Virus genome (UHGV): UHGV-0112872
Direction: 5' to 3' (one strand)
DNA from: a virus
Length of the DNA stretch: 12,499 bases
Made by a program: the position numbers and the translations under genes. The notes below the pieces were generated by a model, which had not been told where the DNA came from, did no database searches, and was given only the letters and a program-made list of their open reading frames with translations. Of the stretch, positions 4,682 to 12,499 are shown one piece after another (position 1 is the first letter of the stretch; each line of letters starts with the position of its first letter).

Positions 4682-5535
4682 GCACCATCCTGAAATGGGC
4701 GGGAAATAAAACCGCAATTATGTCCGAACTGAAAAAATACCTACCTGCTGGCCCGCGACTGGTTGAACCTTTCGCGGGTTCCTGTGCTGTGATGATGGAG
4801 ACGGATTACCCCAGCTATCTGGTTGCGGATATTAATCCTGATTTAATCAACCTCTATAAAAAGATTGCCGCTGATTGCGAGGCGTTTATATCGCGGACCA
4901 GAACTTTGTTTGAGGAAGCAAACAGTGACCTAGCTTATTACAACATAAGGCAGGAGTTTAATTACTCAACTGAAATTACTGATTTCATGAAAGCGGTATA
5001 TTTCCTGTATCTCAATCGTCACGGTTACCGTGGTTTATGTCGCTATAACAAGAGCGGGCATTTCAACATCCCCTACGGTAATTATAAAAATCCGTATTTC
5101 CCTGAAAAAGAAATTCACGCATTTGCAGAAAAGGCCCAGCGAGCAACGTTTATCTGCGCCAGCTTTGATGAAACGCTGGCGATGTTGAAGGCGGGGGATG
5201 TGGTGTATTGCGATCCGCCGTATGACGGCACGTTTTCCGGTTATCACACTGACGGCTTCACTGAAGATGACCAGTATCACCTGGCATCCGTTCTTGAACA
5301 TCGGTCATCAGAAGGACATCCAGTCATTGTTTCTAACAGTGACACATCCCTGATCCGTTCGCTGTATCGCAATTTCACTCACCACTACATCAAGGCAAAA
5401 CGCAGCATCGGCGTGTCAGCTGGCGAGAGTAAATCTGCAACAGAAATCATTGCTGTTTCCGGGTCGCGCTGCTGGATGGGATTTGATCCTTCGCGTGGCG
5501 TGGATAGTTCTGCCGTGTACGGAGTACGTGCATGA
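4678..5535 (+). CDS. dam: Dam-like DNA N6-adenine methyltransferase
   Basis: 285 aa; ATG 4678 overlaps the upstream stop (ATGA). AdoMet-binding motif I ([11 protein letters not shown]) near the N-terminus and catalytic DPPY ([10 protein letters not shown]) downstream, the Dam-type arrangement; N-terminal KWAGNK is Dam-like. Confidence 0.85.
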
Positions 5536-7946
5536 GTCATGCCGATATGAACAACTGCTGCGGCTTTAACGAGGCTGCCGCAGCATTTTCATGGAACGGC
5601 CCGAAAAAGGCCATTAACCCTTATCTGGATCCGGCGGAAGTTGCGCCGGAGTCTGCACTTTCAAACCTGATCACTCTGTACGCTGCCGATAACGAGCAGG
5701 AACAACTGCGCCGCGAGGCACTGAGTGAGCAGGTCTGGGAGCGTTATTTCTTTAATGAATCCCGTGATCCTGTCCAGCGCGAAATGGAGCAGGATAAGCT
5801 CATTAGCCGGGCAAAGCTGGCGCATGAGCAGCAGCGTTTTAACCCGGACATGGTCATTCTGGCAGATGTCAGCGCCCAGCCTTCTCATATCAGCAAGCCG
5901 CTGATGCAACGTATCGAATACTTCAGCAGCCTGGGCAGGCCAAAGGCTTATTCCCGCTATTTGCGTGAGACGATTAAGCCATGTCTGGAGCGACTGGATT
6001 GTGTACGTGACAGTCAGCTATCTGTTTCTTTCCGTTTTATGGCAAGCCATCAAGGGCTGGAGGGGCTGCTGATCCTGCCTGAAATGAGCCAGGATCAGGT
6101 GAAACGCCTGTCCACCCTGGTAGCAGCGCATATGAGCATGTGTCTTGAGGCCGCTTGTGGTGATTTGTACGCCACCGATGACGTTAAGCCAGAAGAAATC
6201 CGCAAGACATGGGAAAAGGTGGCAGCGGAAACCCTGCGTCTGGATGTTATCCCGCCTGCGTTTGAGAAACTTCGTCGGAAAAGAAACCGCCGCAAACCTG
6301 TGCCCTATGAACTCATACCGGGTTCGCTGGCACGTATGCTTTGCGCCGACTGGTGGTATCGAAAATTGTGGAAGATGCGTTGCGAATGGCGGGAAGAGCA
6401 GTTGCGTGCTGTCTGTCTGGTCAGCAAAAAAGCATCTCCCTATGTCAGCTATGAAGCAGTGACGCATAAACGTGAGCAGCGCCGCAAGTCGCTGGAGTTT
6501 TTCCGTTCTCATGAACTGGTGAACGAAGACGGAGACACGCTGGATATGGAAGATGTGGTAAACGCCAGCAGCAGCAACCCGGCACATCGCCGCAATGAGA
6601 TGATGGCCTGCGTTAAAGGTCTGGAGCTTATCGCGGAAATGCGCGGTGACTGCGCCGTTTTCTACACCATCACCTGTCCGTCACGTTTCCATTCCACGCT
6701 CAATAACGGCAGACCAAACCCGACCTGGACAAATGCGACGGTAAGACAAAGCAGTGATTATCTGGTCGGCATGTTTGCTGCATTTCGTAAGGCGATGCAC
6801 AAAGCCGGATTGCGGTGGTATGGCGTGCGGGTGGCTGAGCCGCATCATGACGGTACTGTGCACTGGCATCTCATGTGCTTCATGCGTAAAAAAGACCGCC
6901 GCGCCATCACTGCATTACTGCGTAAGTTTGCCATCCGTGAAGACCGCGAGGAACTGGGCAATAACACGGGGCCACGCTTTAAGTCTGAGCTGATTAACCC
7001 GCGCAAAGGAACGCCGACAAGCTACATCGCGAAATACATCAGTAAGAACATTGACGGGCGTGGTCTGGCTGGCGAGATCAGCAAGGAAACGGGTAAATCC
7101 CTGCGTGATAACGCTGAATACGTTAATGCCTGGGCGTCTCTGCATCGTGTTCAGCAATTCCGCTTCTTTGGCATTCCGGGGCGTCAGGCTTACCGTGAAC
7201 TGCGATTGCTGGCTGGTCAGGCGGCAAGGCAGCAGGGTGACAAAAAAGCAGGTGCGCCGGTACTGGATGATCCGCGTCTTGATGCCATTCTGGCTGCTGC
7301 TGATGCTGGCTGTTTTGCCACCTACATTATGAAGCAGGGCGGCGTGTTGGTTCCCCGCAAATATCACTTGATCAGAACCGCTTATGAAATCAACGAAGAG
7401 CCGACCGCCTATGGTGATCACGGTATTCGTATTTATGGCATCTGGTCACCCATTGCAGAGGGCAAGATCTGCACTCATGCAGTGAAGTGGAAAATGGTTC
7501 GTAAGGCCGTTGACGTTCAGGAGGCGGCAGCCGACCAGGGCGCTTGCGCCCCTTGGACTCGTGGCAATAACTGTCCCCTTGCTGAAAATTTGAACCAACA
7601 AGGGAAAGACAAATCAGCTGATGGGGATACCAGGACGGACATTACCCGCATGGATGACAAGGAGTTGCACGATTACCTGCACAGTATGAGCAAAAAAGAG
7701 CGCCGGGAACTGGCTGCAAGGTTACGCCTGGTGAAACCGAAACGGCGTAAAGACTACAAACAGCGAATTACAGACCATCAGCGACAGCAGCTCGTCTATG
7801 AACTGAAGTCCAGAGGATTTGATGGCAGCGAGAAAGAGGTCGATTTACTCCTTCGCGGCGGCAGTATTCCGTCAGGAGCAGGCCTGCGTATCTTCTATCG
7901 GAACCAGCGTTTGCAGGAAGATGATAAGTGGCGAAACCTGTATTAA
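5532..7946 (+). CDS. A: Replication initiation endonuclease, gene A type (rolling-circle / HUH)
   Basis: 804-aa ORF, ATG 5532 overlapping the dam stop (ATGA) with GGAG upstream. HUH-type metal-binding motif (HWHLMCF) and downstream paired tyrosines (YIAKYISK), as in P2 gpA-family proteins. Confidence 0.9.
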
Positions 7947-8014
7947 TTACGCGGGTTAACAATTCGTGCTCTTAATAATACCAGGCATATCAGGCTGATG
8001 AACGTAAAAAAACG

Positions 8015-8058
8015 TTTTACATCAGTAAGATTATTATATACTGTAAATATAAACAGTG
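8015..8058 (+). promoter_or_regulatory. SOS-regulated promoter with LexA box
   Basis: Near-consensus LexA operator TACTGTAAATATAAACAGTG (8039-8058; CTGT-N8-ACAG). It overlaps a candidate -10 TATACT (8037-8042); -35-like TTTACA at 8016-8021. Immediately upstream of the Tum-position gene, as in the 186 SOS operon. Confidence 0.7.
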
Positions 8059-8099
8059 GTTATGCATACAGTATTGCTTGTGGTGTCATAGGAGGAAAG

Positions 8100-8288
8100 A
8101 TGCAGGACTATTTTTTGGAGTCTTTGAAGCTCCAGCGCATTGATTTTTTTCTTAAGCTTGTAGCGGCTAGTGAGTGTAGTGATGAAGAGAAGGGGCTGGC
8201 CCTGCAATGGGTTTCTGAACTAACAGATGAACTCATGGCAAAAATCAGAACCCACGAATACAACCGCTCAATGGATGTCATCAGCTGA
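8100..8288 (+). CDS. Small protein (62 aa) in LexA-controlled operon, occupying the position of the 186 Tum antirepressor
   Basis: ATG 8100 preceded by GGAGGA; first ORF downstream of the LexA box. Identity as a Tum-like antirepressor is positional inference only. Confidence 0.5.
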   Translation: MQDYFLESLKLQRIDFFLKLVAASECSDEEKGLALQWVSELTDELMAKIRTHEYNRSMDVIS

Positions 8289-8298
8289 GGTGACTTTT

Positions 8299-8532
8299 AT
8301 GCGCATTGAAATAATGATCGATAAAGAGCAGAAGATTAGCCAGTCTACCCTGGATGCCCTTGAATCCGAGCTTTACCGCAATCTGCGCCCCCTGTATCCC
8401 AAAACGGTAATTCGTATCCGCAAAGGTAGCTCTAACGGTGTGGAACTGACCGGACTGCAACTGGACGAAGAAAGAAAACAAGTGCTGAAAATTATGCAGA
8501 AGGTGTGGGAAGACGACTGCTGGCTGCATTGA
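8299..8532 (+). CDS. dinI: DinI-family protein
   Basis: 77 aa beginning MRIEIMIDK and ending WEDDCWLH. It aligns by eye with E. coli DinI (MRIEVTIAK ... ETWESADDWF): shared MRIE start, DAL..EL motif, central hydrophobic core, C-terminal acidic W-containing tail. GAGGTGA upstream. Confidence 0.8.
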   Translation: MRIEIMIDKEQKISQSTLDALESELYRNLRPLYPKTVIRIRKGSSNGVELTGLQLDEERKQVLKIMQKVWEDDCWLH

Positions 8533-8668
8533 TAGGTTTCGTTTGTAATGAGTCATGTTTTTTGAGTCCGATAGTAGACAGCTAGAGGGATAAATGATTA
8601 ATAGATAGATTAAACATAGTGATGGGCGTAAAATCGCGCGCATTTTATTGGCAACGGATCTGAACTCA

Positions 8669-9562
8669 ATGGCGGATAAGACTCAATCAGTAAGTATTGT
8701 GTATCAAGGCAAAGCTCTCGACGATCATAAGATGGATATTCTTTCGTTTGCGAAAAGTTTGCAGGGGCTAGGTGAGGCTATCTACTCTGCAAATGAGATT
8801 GTAAACGGAGGGCGAGACATTGAAGTTAACGTTGACGCTGAATTGATAGCCGGTTCCTTTGGGTTTGATATTGAGGTTGTACAACATCTAGCTAATGCTA
8901 AAGATGTTGTACAAATTTTAGGTTTGTCAGCCATTCCTTTAGCCGTTGGCGGTGCTACAGTTTTAGAGGTTCTCAAGAAGCTTAACGGGCGTAAGATCGA
9001 CATAGTCGAGAAAGCTAACGGTAGTGACAAAGTTAAGCTGAAAGTCGATGGTGAAGAGATTGTTTGCTCTGAAGATGTCGAAAAAATCGTTAATGCCCCA
9101 GAGATTCGTAAGGCTGTTGACGCGTTTGTCAGACAGCCTCTGTTACAAGATGGTATCGACAATTTTGTGGTAAAAAAATCGCGCACCTCTAAGAAAGAAA
9201 TCCTCAAAATTCATAAAGATGAGGCAGAAGAGTTTAAGTCGCCAAAAGTTCTCTTTGAAACCAAAGAAGAAGTTGACGAATTTGAAACAACCGTGACATT
9301 CGTTTCGGCGCATACTGACAAAAAAAGTGGCTGGCGTGTTGAGTTTGGCGGTGAAAAGCGCAATGTCAGAATGGAAGATAATGAGTTCATCAAGCTTGTT
9401 ACTGGACCAGACGCCCCCAAAATTTTTGGCGAATTGTTTGCTGTGAAGATGAAGAAAATTGTGAAAGATTCCGGTGGCCAGGTAGACGAAAAGTTATCGA
9501 TCATCAAAGTGGGTCGACACTTTGCCGCCAAAGATAGAAAAATAAAACCTGATGCGGATTAA
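8669..9562 (+). CDS. Cargo module 1, gene 1: uncharacterised 297-aa Lys/Glu/Asp-rich protein with one internal hydrophobic segment
   Basis: Long ORF (ATG 8669; alternative in-frame TTG 8648) in an AT-richer block. Hydrophobic stretch ILGLSAIPLAVGGATVLEVL around residues 85-105, then a long highly charged region. No catalytic motif recognised. Confidence 0.6.
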   Translation: MADKTQSVSIVYQGKALDDHKMDILSFAKSLQGLGEAIYSANEIVNGGRDIEVNVDAELIAGSFGFDIEVVQHLANAKDVVQILGLSAIPLAVGGATVLEVLKKLNGRKIDIVEKANGSDKVKLKVDGEEIVCSEDVEKIVNAPEIRKAVDAFVRQPLLQDGIDNFVVKKSRTSKKEILKIHKDEAEEFKSPKVLFETKEEVDEFETTVTFVSAHTDKKSGWRVEFGGEKRNVRMEDNEFIKLVTGPDAPKIFGELFAVKMKKIVKDSGGQVDEKLSIIKVGRHFAAKDRKIKPDAD

Positions 9563-9564
9563 AA

Positions 9565-9828
9565 ATGTCTATAGATATTAGTGTGTTAGGATGGTTGGGG
9601 CTGCTTGTTGCAGCTCCAGCTATATTTATAGGTGCTAGAGTGGCTATACGTAGCCTGCTCGATCGAGTTATTGTCGAAACAAAAGTTTCTATCACTTATA
9701 CTGATGCAAACAAAAATGTCTATAAAACAAATATTTATATAAACAATGATGATGAGTTAATAAAGCTCATCGATGATATAGCAGAGAAAAATAAGCGTGA
9801 GAGGAAGGAGTCAGCCTCTCATGCCTGA
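9565..9828 (+). CDS. Cargo module 1, gene 2: small single-pass membrane protein (87 aa)
   Basis: ATG 2 nt after the upstream stop (tight coupling); N-terminal hydrophobic helix GWLGLLVAAPAIFIGARVAI followed by a charged soluble tail. Confidence 0.55.
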   Translation: MSIDISVLGWLGLLVAAPAIFIGARVAIRSLLDRVIVETKVSITYTDANKNVYKTNIYINNDDELIKLIDDIAEKNKRERKESASHA

Positions 9829-10237
9829 ACAAAAGAAAACAAGCGGTAAAGCAGTCGGTGTTACAGGTGGCGGCGGTGTAGGCCTTTTCCTAATAAAGCT
9901 GGCTAGCTTCATTACAGATCCAACATGGAAAGACCTTTACATTGCTTCAATACCGATGGTGTCAATTCTTTTAAGCGAAGTTTTTACTTTTGCATGGACG
10001 ATTTATGCTGTTGATCCGCAAGAAATCAAACTGAAAAGGCGGTTGAAGGCTCTGAAGAAGCAAGCCGAAGCAGTTTTAAATGCACCATCGTCCCCTGTTT
10101 CTCCAGAAATGCGAGAGAAAGCGCAGGCTCGTTACGACGTGATCTGTGGAATTGAAATGGGAATTTACCCCCTCTCAATTGTAAATACGCTAGATGGAAA
10201 AGTATCCCCCACAGCGCAAACGCCGGACGTTAAATAG
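9821..10237 (+). CDS. Cargo module 1, gene 3: small two-helix membrane protein (138 aa)
   Basis: ATG 9821 preceded by GGAAGGAG and overlapping the upstream gene by 8 nt. Two hydrophobic segments (GVGLFLIKLASFI; IASIPMVSILLSEVFTFAWTIYAV) followed by a Lys-rich helical tail. Confidence 0.55.
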   Translation: MPEQKKTSGKAVGVTGGGGVGLFLIKLASFITDPTWKDLYIASIPMVSILLSEVFTFAWTIYAVDPQEIKLKRRLKALKKQAEAVLNAPSSPVSPEMREKAQARYDVICGIEMGIYPLSIVNTLDGKVSPTAQTPDVK

Positions 10238-10300
10238 CAGTTTCTACTTTGCATGACTATGCTGCATGAAATCGCATGATCGTTTGAGGATCGTTTTTGC

Positions 10301-10328
10301 AAAAGCCCGCCAGAACTGGCGGGCTTTT
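10301..10328 (+). terminator. Rho-independent terminator closing the right-arm operon
   Basis: GC-rich inverted repeat GCCCGCC (10305-10311) / GGCGGGC (10318-10324) followed by TTTT (10325-10328) and preceded by AAAA. Confidence 0.7.
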
Positions 10329-10373
10329 GCGTAGAGCATGCATCTGCATGAAAACCACTACATAAAGCGGGCA

Positions 10374-10392
10374 GGCGTGGCGGGGATACGAG
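10374..10392. other. Candidate cos site (cohesive-end motif of P2/186-type phages)
   Basis: GGCGTGGCGGGGATACGAG followed by GCGCGCGCT. The first 13 nt match the 186 cohesive end as I recall it (GGCGTGGCGGGGAAAGCAT; P2 is GGCGAGGCGGGGAAAGCAC), and the flanking GCGCGCT resembles the sequence next to the P2 left end. These reference sequences are from memory. Confidence 0.6.
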
Positions 10393-10522
10393 CGCGCGCT
10401 AACTCTTGGCTTTGTTTCATAATCAAAAATGTGATCATTGAGATTATTCTTAAATTTGTGTTTGTCTATGAAATATCATTTCGCTTAACATTGTTTGAGT
10501 TAGGACTACATGAGAATAAAGA

Positions 10523-11098
10523 ATGCTTTTACCCGTAAGTATTACATCGTGTGGCTTGTATCACCCCTACTGGCATTTGGGAGAGCGCAACCCTCATAGC
10601 GATGAACTATCAAGGCAGATGATGGATTTTAAGGATGAAAATAATCGTAATCATCAAAGGGCCATTAACCGTTTTTCTCGATTAGCTATAGATAAGGTTG
10701 GGCGGTTAGTAATCAGAGGTGGCGGTGGGCGTTTTGTTGAGTCTCCTTTTTCGATAGCAGTTGTCCCGTCTCACACTGAAGGCAGAATTTCACCGGCTTT
10801 GATTGAGGTCGCCGAGCGAATCGTAAATGTTCACCGTCGGGGCATTGTTGATTGCTGTTTGGAAAGAACACGCACTGTTCCTAGCGCACATCGTGAAGGT
10901 GGAGATCGCTCAATTACTGGTCACATGTCTAGTATCAGAGTTAGGGGTGGTAACCTCATGGGGCGAAATGTGTTACTACTAGATGATGTTAAAACAACAG
11001 GCGGTAGTTTGTCTGCGTGTTTTTATTTACTGGAGTCTGCAGGAGCTGGAGTTATAATGCCATTAGCTCTGCTAGAAACTGCAAACTATGAGGAGTAG
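10523..11098 (+). CDS. Cargo module 2, gene 1: phosphoribosyltransferase (PRTase, type I) domain protein
   Basis: PRPP-binding signature VLLLDDVKTTGGSL near the C-terminus, the classic type I PRTase motif also seen in ComF-like proteins. Start uncertain: ATG 10523 has a weak RBS; in-frame ATGs at 10619/10622 are alternatives. Confidence 0.7.
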   Translation: MLLPVSITSCGLYHPYWHLGERNPHSDELSRQMMDFKDENNRNHQRAINRFSRLAIDKVGRLVIRGGGGRFVESPFSIAVVPSHTEGRISPALIEVAERIVNVHRRGIVDCCLERTRTVPSAHREGGDRSITGHMSSIRVRGGNLMGRNVLLLDDVKTTGGSLSACFYLLESAGAGVIMPLALLETANYEE

Positions 11099-12062
11099 CA
11101 AAGTGCACTCAGAAGAATTAAAAAATACACTTGGATTAGCTATTCAAATCGGGAAGCTAGCATCTGATCAAAGTGTATTAAAATTCTTTGAGCTTATCGA
11201 TTTTGATGTTATTCGTGATATACGCGACTTAACTGAGATGGTTAATAGCCACGGGTTTCTAAAAGATAAAATATCTGAGACTGATTTTCTAATAGCGAAC
11301 GCTGAATTGGAGAACCACCATGTTAATGGTGTGGAGCTAATACCATATGGGTCTGAATTCTATCCTCTTAGTTTAGCTTTTACTCCTAATCCACCATCAA
11401 TTCTCTACATAAAAGGGGATAAAAGTATACTCAAAGAATTGCCGGGTGTCGCAATTGTAGGATCCCGTGATACCTCCCCTGCAGGGGAAGAAATAACGAG
11501 GCGGATCACTAATCAGATAGTGTCTGCTGGGTATATTGTTGTAAGTGGGTTAGCAATAGGCACTGATGCGAATGCTCACAAGGCAACGTTACAGGCAAAA
11601 GGAAAAACCATTGCTGTCTTGGCGCATGGTCTTGAGGAGGCTAAGCCGAAGCAAAACAGTCGACTTGCTCAAGAGATTCTGGATAAAGGTGGTGCATGGA
11701 TTTCTGAGTATCCTATGGGTCGGCCGGCCCAGAAACAATCATTTGTACAAAGAAATCGGATACAAGTTGGATTATCTGCAGGTTCAATTTTAATCGAGGC
11801 TGCGTTAAATAGCGGAACGATAACTCAAGCTGAGTTTGCAAATAAGGCGAAAAGACCAGTGTTTGCGGTTGTACCTCACCTACCTAATAATCCGCTTAAT
11901 CTTAATTGTGAGGGAACAGTTGATTTAGTTAAGAGCAACATGGCTAGAGCGCTAAAAACAAAACGGGATTATGATGATGTGATTATGATCATAAATGAGT
12001 CCCGGGAGTATTTGTTAGAGCTAAAATGGCCAGGGAAACAGAGTACATTAGACTTGATTTAA
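11088..12062 (+). CDS. Cargo module 2, gene 2: DprA/Smf-like (SLOG / Rossmann-fold DNA-processing-A domain) protein
   Basis: Segments GVAIVGSRDTSPAGEE, VVSGLAIGTDANAHKATL, KTIAVLAHGLEE, SEYPMGRPAQKQSFVQRNRIQVGLS and RPVFAVVPHLP follow the conserved order of DprA/Smf cores. Overlaps the PRTase gene end; an in-frame GTG at 11103 with AGGAG 7 nt upstream is a plausible alternative start. Confidence 0.8.
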   Translation: MRSSKVHSEELKNTLGLAIQIGKLASDQSVLKFFELIDFDVIRDIRDLTEMVNSHGFLKDKISETDFLIANAELENHHVNGVELIPYGSEFYPLSLAFTPNPPSILYIKGDKSILKELPGVAIVGSRDTSPAGEEITRRITNQIVSAGYIVVSGLAIGTDANAHKATLQAKGKTIAVLAHGLEEAKPKQNSRLAQEILDKGGAWISEYPMGRPAQKQSFVQRNRIQVGLSAGSILIEAALNSGTITQAEFANKAKRPVFAVVPHLPNNPLNLNCEGTVDLVKSNMARALKTKRDYDDVIMIINESREYLLELKWPGKQSTLDLI

Positions 12063-12085
12063 AGCGCCTCTTTTAGAGGCACTTT
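12061..12085. terminator. Hairpin between convergent genes, possible bidirectional terminator
   Basis: Stem GCCTC (12066-12070) / GAGGC (12076-12080) with TTTTA loop, extendable with one mismatch, followed by T-rich sequence. Sits in the 24-bp gap between the DprA-like stop and the convergent portal-like stop. Confidence 0.4.
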
Positions 12086-12086
12086 G

Positions 12087-12499
12087 CTAAATTTGATATC
12101 TCTCGAATTTTATAATTTCTTCACCGCTCCAATGATTAAATTCTTTCATTCTTTTTTGTAATGGTAATAATTCATTTTTCACAAATACCTTACTAGCTTT
12201 TTCTACATCCCCAAATCCCCCAACATTATTAGGCATTATCCCCATCATTTGTGGCGGCACACGATGCGCTGCCATCATGTCATCCCGACTCACGTTCTTG
12301 ATGTTAAGAAATTCATCCTTCGCCGCGACTTCTGACAACGGGATGATCTGAAGCCCGTCCTTTTTGCCGTTAGGCGAGTACATAAACAGGTTGCGGAAGT
12401 TGCCAGGGCCTTTGGCGCTTTTCATCGCATTGCGGAGGTTGTTCACATCCTCCTGGTTCTGCGCGGCATCGGTCATGTACATGATGAAGCCTGCATGAC
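12087..12499 (-). CDS. Portal-like protein (P2 gpQ position), C-terminal part; gene continues beyond the window
   Basis: Minus-strand ORF open to the window edge (...PPQMMGIMPNNVGGFGDVEKASKVFVKNELLPLQKRMKEFNHWSGEEIIKFERYQI). Leftward orientation next to cos matches the Q/portal position in P2/186; family assignment is by position and general resemblance only. Confidence 0.55.
   Translation of the reverse strand, partial: HAGFIMYMTDAAQNQEDVNNLRNAMKSAKGPGNFRNLFMYSPNGKKDGLQIIPLSEVAAKDEFLNIKNVSRDDMMAAHRVPPQMMGIMPNNVGGFGDVEKASKVFVKNELLPLQKRMKEFNHWSGEEIIKFERYQI

Follow-up and report, generated by a model that had tools for sequence, protein, structure and literature searches.

A short phosphoribosyltransferase and a DprA-like protein encoded beside cos in a P2-like prophage: a probable HAD-less relative of the ShosTA defence systems

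The gene pair beside cos

The DNA analysed here is a 12,499-nucleotide stretch of the virus genome UHGV-0112872 (the window, numbered from its first letter). Open reading frame (ORF) calls and domain matches identify it as the early/regulatory half of a P2/186-like prophage, and a near-identical arrangement of early genes is annotated in Escherichia coli E2348/69. We examined a pair of adjacent, co-oriented genes near its right end, one for a stand-alone type I phosphoribosyltransferase (PRTase) and one for a DprA-like protein, which probably correspond to the toxin (ShosT) and antitoxin (ShosA) of the ShosTA defence systems. The order along the window is replication gene A (gpA), a variable stretch, cos, the PRTase and DprA-like genes, and the 3' end of the portal gene. 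The features at and around the pair are these:

10299..10330: perfect 15-bp inverted repeat (GCAAAAGCCCGCCAG / CTGGCGGGCTTTTGC), 100% complementary with a 2-nt loop, terminator-like
10374..10392: cos cohesive-end sequence, 19 nt (GGCGTGGCGGGGATACGAG), within a conserved packaging region of ~150 bp (about 10250-10400)
10393..10522, + strand: AT-rich 130-bp spacer, the expected site of the cassette's own promoter
10523..11098, + strand: stand-alone type I PRTase, 191 aa, ShosT-like/ComF-like, putative toxin, with no HAD/pyrophosphatase domain
11088..12062 (from ATG) or 11103-12062 (from GTG), + strand: DprA-like protein, ShosA-like, putative antitoxin
11090..11095, + strand: GAGGAG Shine-Dalgarno sequence for the DprA-like gene, made of the conserved final Glu-Glu codons of the PRTase
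12066..12080: short hairpin GCCTC-TTTTA-GAGGC, within the 24 nt that separate the convergent stops of the DprA-like and portal genes
12087..12482, - strand: 3' part of the portal gene (gpQ homologue; Phage_portal match), right boundary of the hotspot; the gene runs past the window

The cos site was placed by the termini of phage genomes and by one annotated cos site; direct searches with the P2 and 186 cos 19-mers, allowing ≤3 mismatches, gave no match. The deposited genomes of phages SEN8 and EtG terminate at the base equivalent to window 10373, the Midge and P24C9 records terminate at window 10382, and positions 5-59 of phage Cartapus, annotated as "putative cos site", are identical over 55 nt to window 10346-10400. 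Identity above 90% with Fels-2, RE2010 and Klebsiella P2-like phages is confined to 10250-10400. Just ahead of cos, the rightward early/accessory operon ends at the inverted repeat of 10299-10330. The pair lies between cos and the portal gene, as a first reading made from the sequence alone (the sequence-only reading) had it, in a slot that is bounded by gene A and portal gene Q, adjoins cos and varies in content among related prophages; this is the gpA-gpQ, cos-proximal hotspot of P2-like prophages analysed by Rousset et al. 2022 (PMC9122126). The description of the pair as AT-rich cargo is moderately true: GC content is 45% for the PRTase gene and 41% for the DprA-like gene versus 53% for gpA, and GC at third codon positions is 36%, 33% and 57%, respectively.

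Compared with E2348/69 in 25-nt blocks, the window is identical (25/25 per block) from 10373 rightward, matches at 19-24/25 per block over 10248-10372, and is random left of about 10248; E2348/69 carries the identical cassette, yet has other genes left of cos. Because identity is perfect right of 10373 and lost before 10250, we take the two sides of cos to have been shuffled independently, which suggests that recombination took place within or close to the conserved packaging region and that the accessory genes on either side have separate histories.

The PRTase ORF includes LLLDDVKTTGGSL; its residues 148-164 read NVLLLDDVKTTGGSLSA, and the loop for phosphoribosyl pyrophosphate (PRPP) is LLLDDVKTTGGS, with aspartates D154 and D155. 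Pfam Pribosyltran matches over the PRPP loop alone (18.6 bits, under the 26.3 cut-off), and the AlphaFold model (predicted local distance difference test score, pLDDT, 90.1) has the complete PRTase fold, so that the ORF, its motif and its modelled fold bear out the original call of a type I PRTase at 10523-11098. Homologues of 189-193 aa, down to about 40% identity, occur in Citrobacter, Enterobacter, Dickeya, Yersinia, Hafnia, Pectobacterium and Shewanella. Their alignment has 22 invariant residues, among them Y13 (within the N-terminal 30 residues), P82, R115, G127-D128-R129-S130 and H134, and S83 and H84 are conserved in ≥90% of sequences. The ratio of nonsynonymous to synonymous substitution (dN/dS) against homologues is about 0.03-0.08 for both genes, values that are approximate because dS is saturated, and the two genes diverge in parallel. 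By these comparisons both genes are real and conserved, and under strong purifying selection.

A truncated pseudogene, which the omission of the PRTase ORF by RefSeq and the start of PHROG 7188 at M34 could indicate, was rejected because the length of the homologues is constant, the N-terminus is conserved, dN/dS is low, and the ORF in E2348/69 (NC_011601.1, 6274-6849, equivalent to window 10523-11098) is intact and identical although unannotated by RefSeq. No in-frame upstream extension of the ORF is possible. The PRTase gave no match to a HAD domain, and no HAD gene lies nearby within the window.

The DprA-like protein is 324 aa from ATG 11088 (the RefSeq call) or 319 aa from GTG 11103, and gene callers are divided between the two. 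It matches Pfam DNA_processg_A at 204.5 bits (E 1.4e-60), comes under the cut-offs of NCBIfam dprA (186.4 bits, cut-off 191.15) and the Smf model PRK10736 (168.6 bits, cut-off 495), and matches SLOG LDcluster4 weakly (22.7 bits, under the 26.3 cut-off). Its AlphaFold model (pLDDT 91.9, with residues 1-5 of the ATG version <50) has a SAM-like helical N-terminus, the DprA Rossmann domain, a C-terminal helix (292-310) and a low-confidence tail, without the winged-helix domain of canonical DprA. R127 and R222 are invariant in the family alignment and align with the single-stranded DNA (ssDNA)-binding arginines R139 and R234 of ShosA; because of this, the putative antitoxin looks like a DprA-type ssDNA binder and not a SLOG nucleotide sensor. 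Thus, of the initial label "DprA/Smf-like (SLOG)", the DprA part is upheld by the DNA_processg_A match, and the SLOG part, with LDcluster4 below its cut-off, is not favoured.

The spacing of the two genes depends upon the start codon, with a 4-nt gap from GTG or an 11-nt overlap from ATG. GTG 11103 is 7 nt past GAGGAG and reproduces the N-terminus of the homologues. Between the two genes, the loci of Pectobacterium, Hafnia and SopEΦ keep the sequence TATGAGGAGTAx(4-5 nt)GTG/TTG, and a junction at the GTG start is conserved in four other loci. The GTG start is favoured because the consensus Shine-Dalgarno sequence, the N-terminus of the homologues and the conserved junction agree. The DprA-like gene does directly follow the PRTase gene, as was first read, but the overlap then described holds just for the ATG 11088 start; the genes are probably 4 nt apart and translationally coupled, and not overlapping. 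In every locus inspected the PRTase gene has a weak Shine-Dalgarno sequence before its ATG, and that of the DprA-like gene is consensus. Since the terminator and cos lie upstream, the cassette is presumed to have its own promoter within 10393-10522. The hairpin at 12066-12080 is possibly a weak, bidirectional terminator, judging by its sequence and position; a consensus scan did not pick it up.

Assignment to the ShosTA family

The DprA-PRTase pair of P2-like hotspots that the sequence-only reading mentioned as a candidate defence system exists, and is ShosTA: Rousset et al. 2022 reported that a DprA plus phosphoribosyltransferase pair from a P2-like prophage of E. coli APEC O1 protects against T7 and lambda (PMC9122126), and Millman et al. 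2022 validated a system of the same type from E. coli KTE181 and named it ShosTA. The cloned APEC O1 and KTE181 fragments contain P2 cos sequence just upstream (Rousset 2022; Millman 2022), so the validated systems come from the same slot as the window pair. The mechanism is no longer "open either way", as the sequence-only reading had it, since structures (PDB 8zva-8zvd, 9vzo, 9w2p) and a partial mechanism appeared in 2025 and 2026 (PMC11961720, PMC12961424). In ShosT, a protein of 424 aa that binds PRPP, a HAD-like pyrophosphatase is fused to a PRTase (Pu et al. 2025, PMC11961720). The D331A/D332A change abolishes its toxicity, for which the PRPP-binding residues H240, K280 and R285 are also needed; the pyrophosphatase mutant R56A only marginally lowers toxicity (PMC11961720). 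When ShosT is expressed, purine metabolism is perturbed, cells filament and genome duplications arise; ShosA is labile and binds ssDNA but not ShosT; and T7 Gp0.7 triggers the system (PMC11961720). The ShosA dimer binds RecA in an ssDNA-sensitive manner (Yang et al. 2026, PMC12961424). These long-form relatives defend against T7, lambda and SECphi phages, and toxicity, its neutralisation and lowered plating efficiency have been demonstrated for the long form only (PMC9122126, PMC11961720, PMC12961424).

PADLOC-DB v2 holds two pairs of models for this family, a broad pair and a narrow E. coli-type pair. Broad ShosT (PDLC03962) matched the window PRTase at E 3.7e-14 and 51 bits over profile positions 62-211 of 237, and broad ShosA (PDLC03961) matched the DprA-like protein at E 2.8e-70 and 235 bits; the validated KTE181 proteins score 180 bits (ShosT) and 285 bits (ShosA) on the same models. 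The narrow pair gave 914 and 765 bits with the KTE181 proteins, versus 113 bits with the DprA-like protein. Domain profiles thus place both proteins in the families first named, and the defence models for ShosT and ShosA match both members of the pair. When the PRTase model was compared with PDB folds, the top three matches were ShosT (8zvc, 8zvd and 8zvb; E 6e-6 to 4e-5, root mean square deviation 2.8-3.6 Å), followed by Helicobacter pylori ComF in fourth place and then by housekeeping PRTases. The DprA-like model matched DprA 3maj at E 1e-19 and ShosA 8zva at E 6e-19, and its sequence is 36% identical to KTE181 ShosA over 198 aa. A phmmer search of the PRTase against PDB sequences gave no match, and the PRTase family profile reached ShosT at E 0.005, behind many housekeeping PRTases; because sequence alone cannot tie the PRTase to the characterised ShosT, the assignment relies upon the fold search and the broad PADLOC model. 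D154/D155 align with ShosT D331/D332, and in the family alignment H84, R115, R129 and H134 fall where ShosT has H240, K280 and R285, to which they may correspond.

The window pair shares with the APEC O1 and KTE181 systems a two-gene composition of PRTase toxin and DprA-like antitoxin, the cos-proximal slot in P2-like prophages, the DD pair of the PRPP loop, matches of both proteins to the broad models and a toxin fold nearest to ShosT; with ShosA it shares the SAM plus Rossmann architecture without winged helix. We consider it likely that the pair belongs to the ShosTA/DprA-PRTase family as toxin-antitoxin/defence cargo. It is a HAD-less short form and not the characterised ShosTA subtype: ShosT has an N-terminal HAD/pyrophosphatase region that the 191-aa window protein is without, and the window has toxin before antitoxin, whereas the characterised ShosTA has antitoxin before toxin. 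Inverted gene order as such is not new, because the table of Millman et al. marks cases in other taxa with "Genes are inverted". No test or description of the minimal HAD-less architecture was found in the literature searched. In the part of the Millman preprint Table S10 available, E2348/69, MS 85-1, Shewanella algae and Hafnia are absent, which is uninformative as the genome set differs; in the available part of Rousset Table S5A, protein accessions of the cassette already occur, at least 13 times for DprA and at least 3 times for the PRTase. The family is already known, catalogued and mechanistically studied, and existing hidden Markov models flag the window pair.

Other known systems resemble the pair less. 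PsyrTA/RqlHI has a toxicity-determining PRTase domain, a DprA-like antitoxin and the order toxin before antitoxin (rqlHI operon), but carries a RecQ-like helicase domain N-terminal to the PRTase that the 191-aa protein does without; PADLOC PsyrT and PsyrA are secondary matches (E 4.9e-6 and 1e-30), the former over positions 577-686 of 689. The PRTase effectors of type III retrons and OpnC of Ophion fall in one clade with the ShosT and PsyrT PRTases (bioRxiv 10.1101/2025.09.30.679545), and their partners differ, being a reverse transcriptase with multicopy single-stranded DNA, or radical-SAM and PHP proteins, none of them DprA-like.

A profile of the short PRTase, searched against 1.84 billion representatives, gave 191 clusters at E ≤1e-30 and 1,245 at E ≤1e-10. 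The best 150 clusters are mostly stand-alone proteins of about 180-200 aa; a minority have N-terminal extensions, which are HAD (P0236), TPR (P0268) or regions without match, and one 708-aa protein (P0181) has, N-terminal to its PRTase domain, a partial match to the PsyrT model (positions 485-688 of 689). In every close homologue looked up, the gene after the PRTase is DprA-like and encodes about 320 aa. A DprA-like gene was also next in 3/3 sampled distant stand-alone PRTases, with a separate HAD gene after it in 2/3. A cyanobacterial 294-aa homologue (P0040) has no DprA neighbour, so the two genes do not always go together among the most distant members of the family. The two metagenomic loci with a separate HAD gene are:

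L015, 626-2825: PRTase, then DprA-like protein (329 aa), then HAD hydrolase
L016, 3166-5744: PRTase, then DprA-like protein (490 aa), then HAD hydrolase

In these loci the PRTases are of 181-185 aa and the HAD hydrolases of 170-177 aa. They share with the window a stand-alone PRTase of the same clade (E about 1e-37 to 1e-40 to the family profile) with the DprA-like gene next, and differ in keeping HAD as a third gene, whereas in the window the portal gene lies 24 nt after the DprA-like gene, without HAD. Going by gene content, we read their arrangement as a "split" version of the HAD-PRTase fusion in characterised ShosT. Since the HAD module is fused, separate or absent among relatives, the family is built around a PRTase-DprA core.

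Among 5,426 complete E. coli genomes, 1,275 match a query spanning cos, the cassette and the portal end, and 22 of the 1,275 carry the cassette; among 50,697 phage records SopEΦ is the sole carrier. The same slot of P2-like prophages is occupied in Pectobacterium, Citrobacter and the Salmonella phage SopEΦ (orf14/orf15, annotated "unknown"). Elsewhere the cassette lies in the hotspot of a P4-like satellite (Hafnia), in a Mu-like prophage of Shewanella algae with mor on one side and the lysis genes on the other, next to the head genes of a further, Mu-like phage in a metagenomic sequence, and at another E. coli locus. The two genes travel together among these elements. The cassette is therefore not universal in the phage group, in keeping with its first description as cargo; because it is patchy and mobile, and the sides of cos are shuffled independently, we regard it as accessory and not as a packaging or competence function. 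For 19 of the 20 best E. coli matches, the annotation beneath the match consists only of a "DNA-processing protein DprA" and the portal protein. Because RefSeq omits the PRTase gene in most E. coli carriers, surveys of annotated proteins see an orphan "DprA" and undercount the system.

Proposed working and alternatives

The pair most likely encodes, on our analysis, a PRPP-dependent genotoxic PRTase restrained by a RecA-linked DprA-like antitoxin, carried as abortive-infection cargo. One small operon with its own upstream region encodes both proteins, and the antitoxin should be made in excess because the ribosome-binding site of the PRTase is weak and that of the DprA-like gene is consensus. 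Going by the fold, the motifs and characterised ShosT, the 191-aa PRTase would bind PRPP-Mg through its intact PRPP loop (D154/D155) and pass the phosphoribosyl group to some acceptor; nucleotide metabolism or DNA would then be disturbed, with replication damage and filamentation as for ShosT. A host pyrophosphatase would replace the missing HAD/pyrophosphatase that pulls the ShosT reaction forward. The DprA-like protein, by analogy with ShosA, would bind ssDNA (through R127 and R222) and, with RecA and the recombination machinery, repair or prevent the damage, and it need not bind the toxin (type IV logic). Infection by another phage may tip the balance, either by host shut-off and decay of a labile antitoxin or by phage ssDNA or single-stranded-DNA-binding protein diverting the DprA-like protein from RecA, and the infected lysogen would die or stall before the invader matures. 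Each of these mechanistic details is held with less confidence than the family and defence-cargo assignment.

Several observations weigh against this interpretation. The sequence overlap of the PRTase with KTE181 ShosT is the 45-residue PRPP loop only (hhalign), its match to ShosT is no better than to housekeeping PRTases, and the narrow E. coli-type ShosT model (PDLC03012) gave no match; in the fold search, ShosT is ahead of ordinary PRTases by one to two orders of E-value. In sequence as in fold, the DprA-like protein is equally near to canonical DprA and to ShosA. It keeps two of the three arginines with which ShosA binds ssDNA and has E249 in place of the third, R261; the dimer-interface residues L181/F182 are Q169/A170 and not conserved. 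A consensus promoter scan found no + strand sigma-70 match in the 10393-10522 spacer. For ShosTA itself, Pu et al. 2025 and Yang et al. 2026 propose different triggers (PMC11961720, PMC12961424), and the latter state that the acceptor of the PRTase is still unidentified, even for ShosT (PMC12961424). Toxicity of a stand-alone PRTase cannot be assumed, because the isolated PRTase domain of the related RqlH/PsyrT is not toxic alone (PMC4670107), and for the short form the whole interpretation is drawn by comparison with the long form.

A stand-alone ComF-like PRTase with DprA could be the ancestral core of the PRTase-DprA defence family, from which HAD-fused ShosT and RecQ-fused PsyrT would derive, with a toxin acting on DNA directly; we hold this only as a tentative possibility. 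The toxin would then, for example, phosphoribosylate bases or ends of ssDNA, as Russell and Mulvey speculated for RqlH, and the DprA-like partner would recognise that specific lesion and, with RecA, repair it.

It is unlikely that the pair is a plain addiction module, which by post-segregational killing would stabilise the prophage or satellite without meaningful anti-phage activity. A toxin with a weak and an antitoxin with a strong Shine-Dalgarno sequence is a generic toxin-antitoxin design, the cassette is carried on integrative mobile elements, and ShosTA was, according to the accounts available, first described as a toxin-antitoxin before its defence role was known. However, validated defence systems are enriched in the hotspot where the cassette lies, its long-form relatives protect against the phages named above, and a prophage that is integrated has little to gain from addiction of the plasmid type; the two roles are also compatible.

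Less probable again is that the pair serves the phage's own DNA handling in the manner of ComFC and DprA in natural transformation, with a PRTase-fold protein that binds ssDNA non-catalytically and a DprA-like protein that loads RecA, for recombination, circularisation or genome protection. The same pairing of PRTase and DprA folds, the fourth rank of H. pylori ComF among the structural matches and the alignment of NCBIfam comF to PRTase residues 28-183 at 25.5 bits would fit this, as would the bona fide DprA fold of the partner with its conserved ssDNA-binding arginines and the DinI-like RecA modulator encoded in the same region (see below). The comF score is nonetheless far under its cut-off of 233.55, no ComF-type four-cysteine zinc finger was seen in the N-terminal part of the PRTase family alignment, and the window proteins fall under the comF, dprA and Smf cut-offs, the DprA-like one without the winged helix. 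Also, the pair is on mobile elements and not in a competence regulon, it is missing from most P2-like prophages and present in unrelated elements, and the invariance of the catalytic DD pair and of other residues of the active-site region argues for an active enzyme.

Thoeris/CBASS-like signalling, in which the PRTase would make or destroy a nucleotide-derived signal sensed by a SLOG-fold partner, is very improbable: DprA does belong to the SLOG superfamily, with a weak LDcluster4 match and ThsA SLOG structures far down the fold list, and the Rousset catalogue lists a short LDcluster4 plus PRTase pair (system 98), but LDcluster4 is below its cut-off against 204 bits for DNA_processg_A, the fold search puts DprA and ShosA first at E 1e-19 versus about 1e-4 for LOG and ThsA, the DprA ssDNA-binding arginines are invariant, and neither protein has a separate effector domain.

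Neighbouring genes and place of the pair in its family

The remaining features of the window are listed below.

505-1692, - strand: integrase, early half of the P2/186-like prophage
1725-1916, - strand: 63-aa ORF between integrase and CI repressor, where GC content is the lowest in the window (about 35-36%)
1932-2507, - strand: CI-type repressor, early half of the P2/186-like prophage
+ strand: CII, DUF5347, TraR/DksA-like protein and Dam methylase, early half of the prophage
5532-7946, + strand: replication gene A (gpA)
8648-9562, 9565-9828 and 9797-10237, + strand: three-gene cassette left of cos, in the same hotspot

The three-gene cassette at 8648-10237 is system 37 of Rousset Table S5B (104 occurrences), with small proteins that have 2 and 1 transmembrane helices. 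Its 304-aa protein matches the PADLOC candidate PDC-S42 (E 7.8e-44), the NCBIfam entry "LAPAL motif-containing putative phage structural protein" (E 2e-56) and PHROG 3243 of unknown function; the name "structural protein" is doubtful for a protein in an accessory slot. The tested-system sequences in the available part of the Rousset supplement hold no record of system 37. That the three genes are the validated "HP+HP+HP" of Rousset was rejected, as the one 3HP protein sequence visible in that supplement differs and the genes correspond to system 37. The cassette occurs in 8 of the 5,426 complete E. coli genomes, none of them among the strains listed as best matches to the ShosTA-like cassette.

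Between gpA and this cassette, the mechanical ORFs in 7998-8532 are longer than the two small conserved genes that they contain. Within ORF 7998-8288, PHROG 698 aligns to residues 35-96 alone, which matches a 62-aa hypothetical protein in E2348/69, and within ORF 8227-8532 Pfam DinI aligns to residues 38-100, which matches a 77-aa DinI-like protein. This DinI-like modulator of RecA filaments is thus encoded about 2 kb away from the putative RecA-linked, DprA-like antitoxin, a proximity that may be a chance product of the P2 backbone. The 63-aa ORF at 1725-1916 has an N-terminus that is hydrophobic and signal-like, and six cysteines, and had no Pfam match; it could be a small secreted or lipoprotein moron.

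The window pair adds to a known anti-phage family and opens no new category. As a natural two-gene minimal case, it could serve to test whether the PRTase domain alone is a toxin, and help to find its acceptor. If the pair does represent the ancestral core of the PRTase-DprA family, this smallest version would be the cleanest system for finding the acceptor of defence PRTases.

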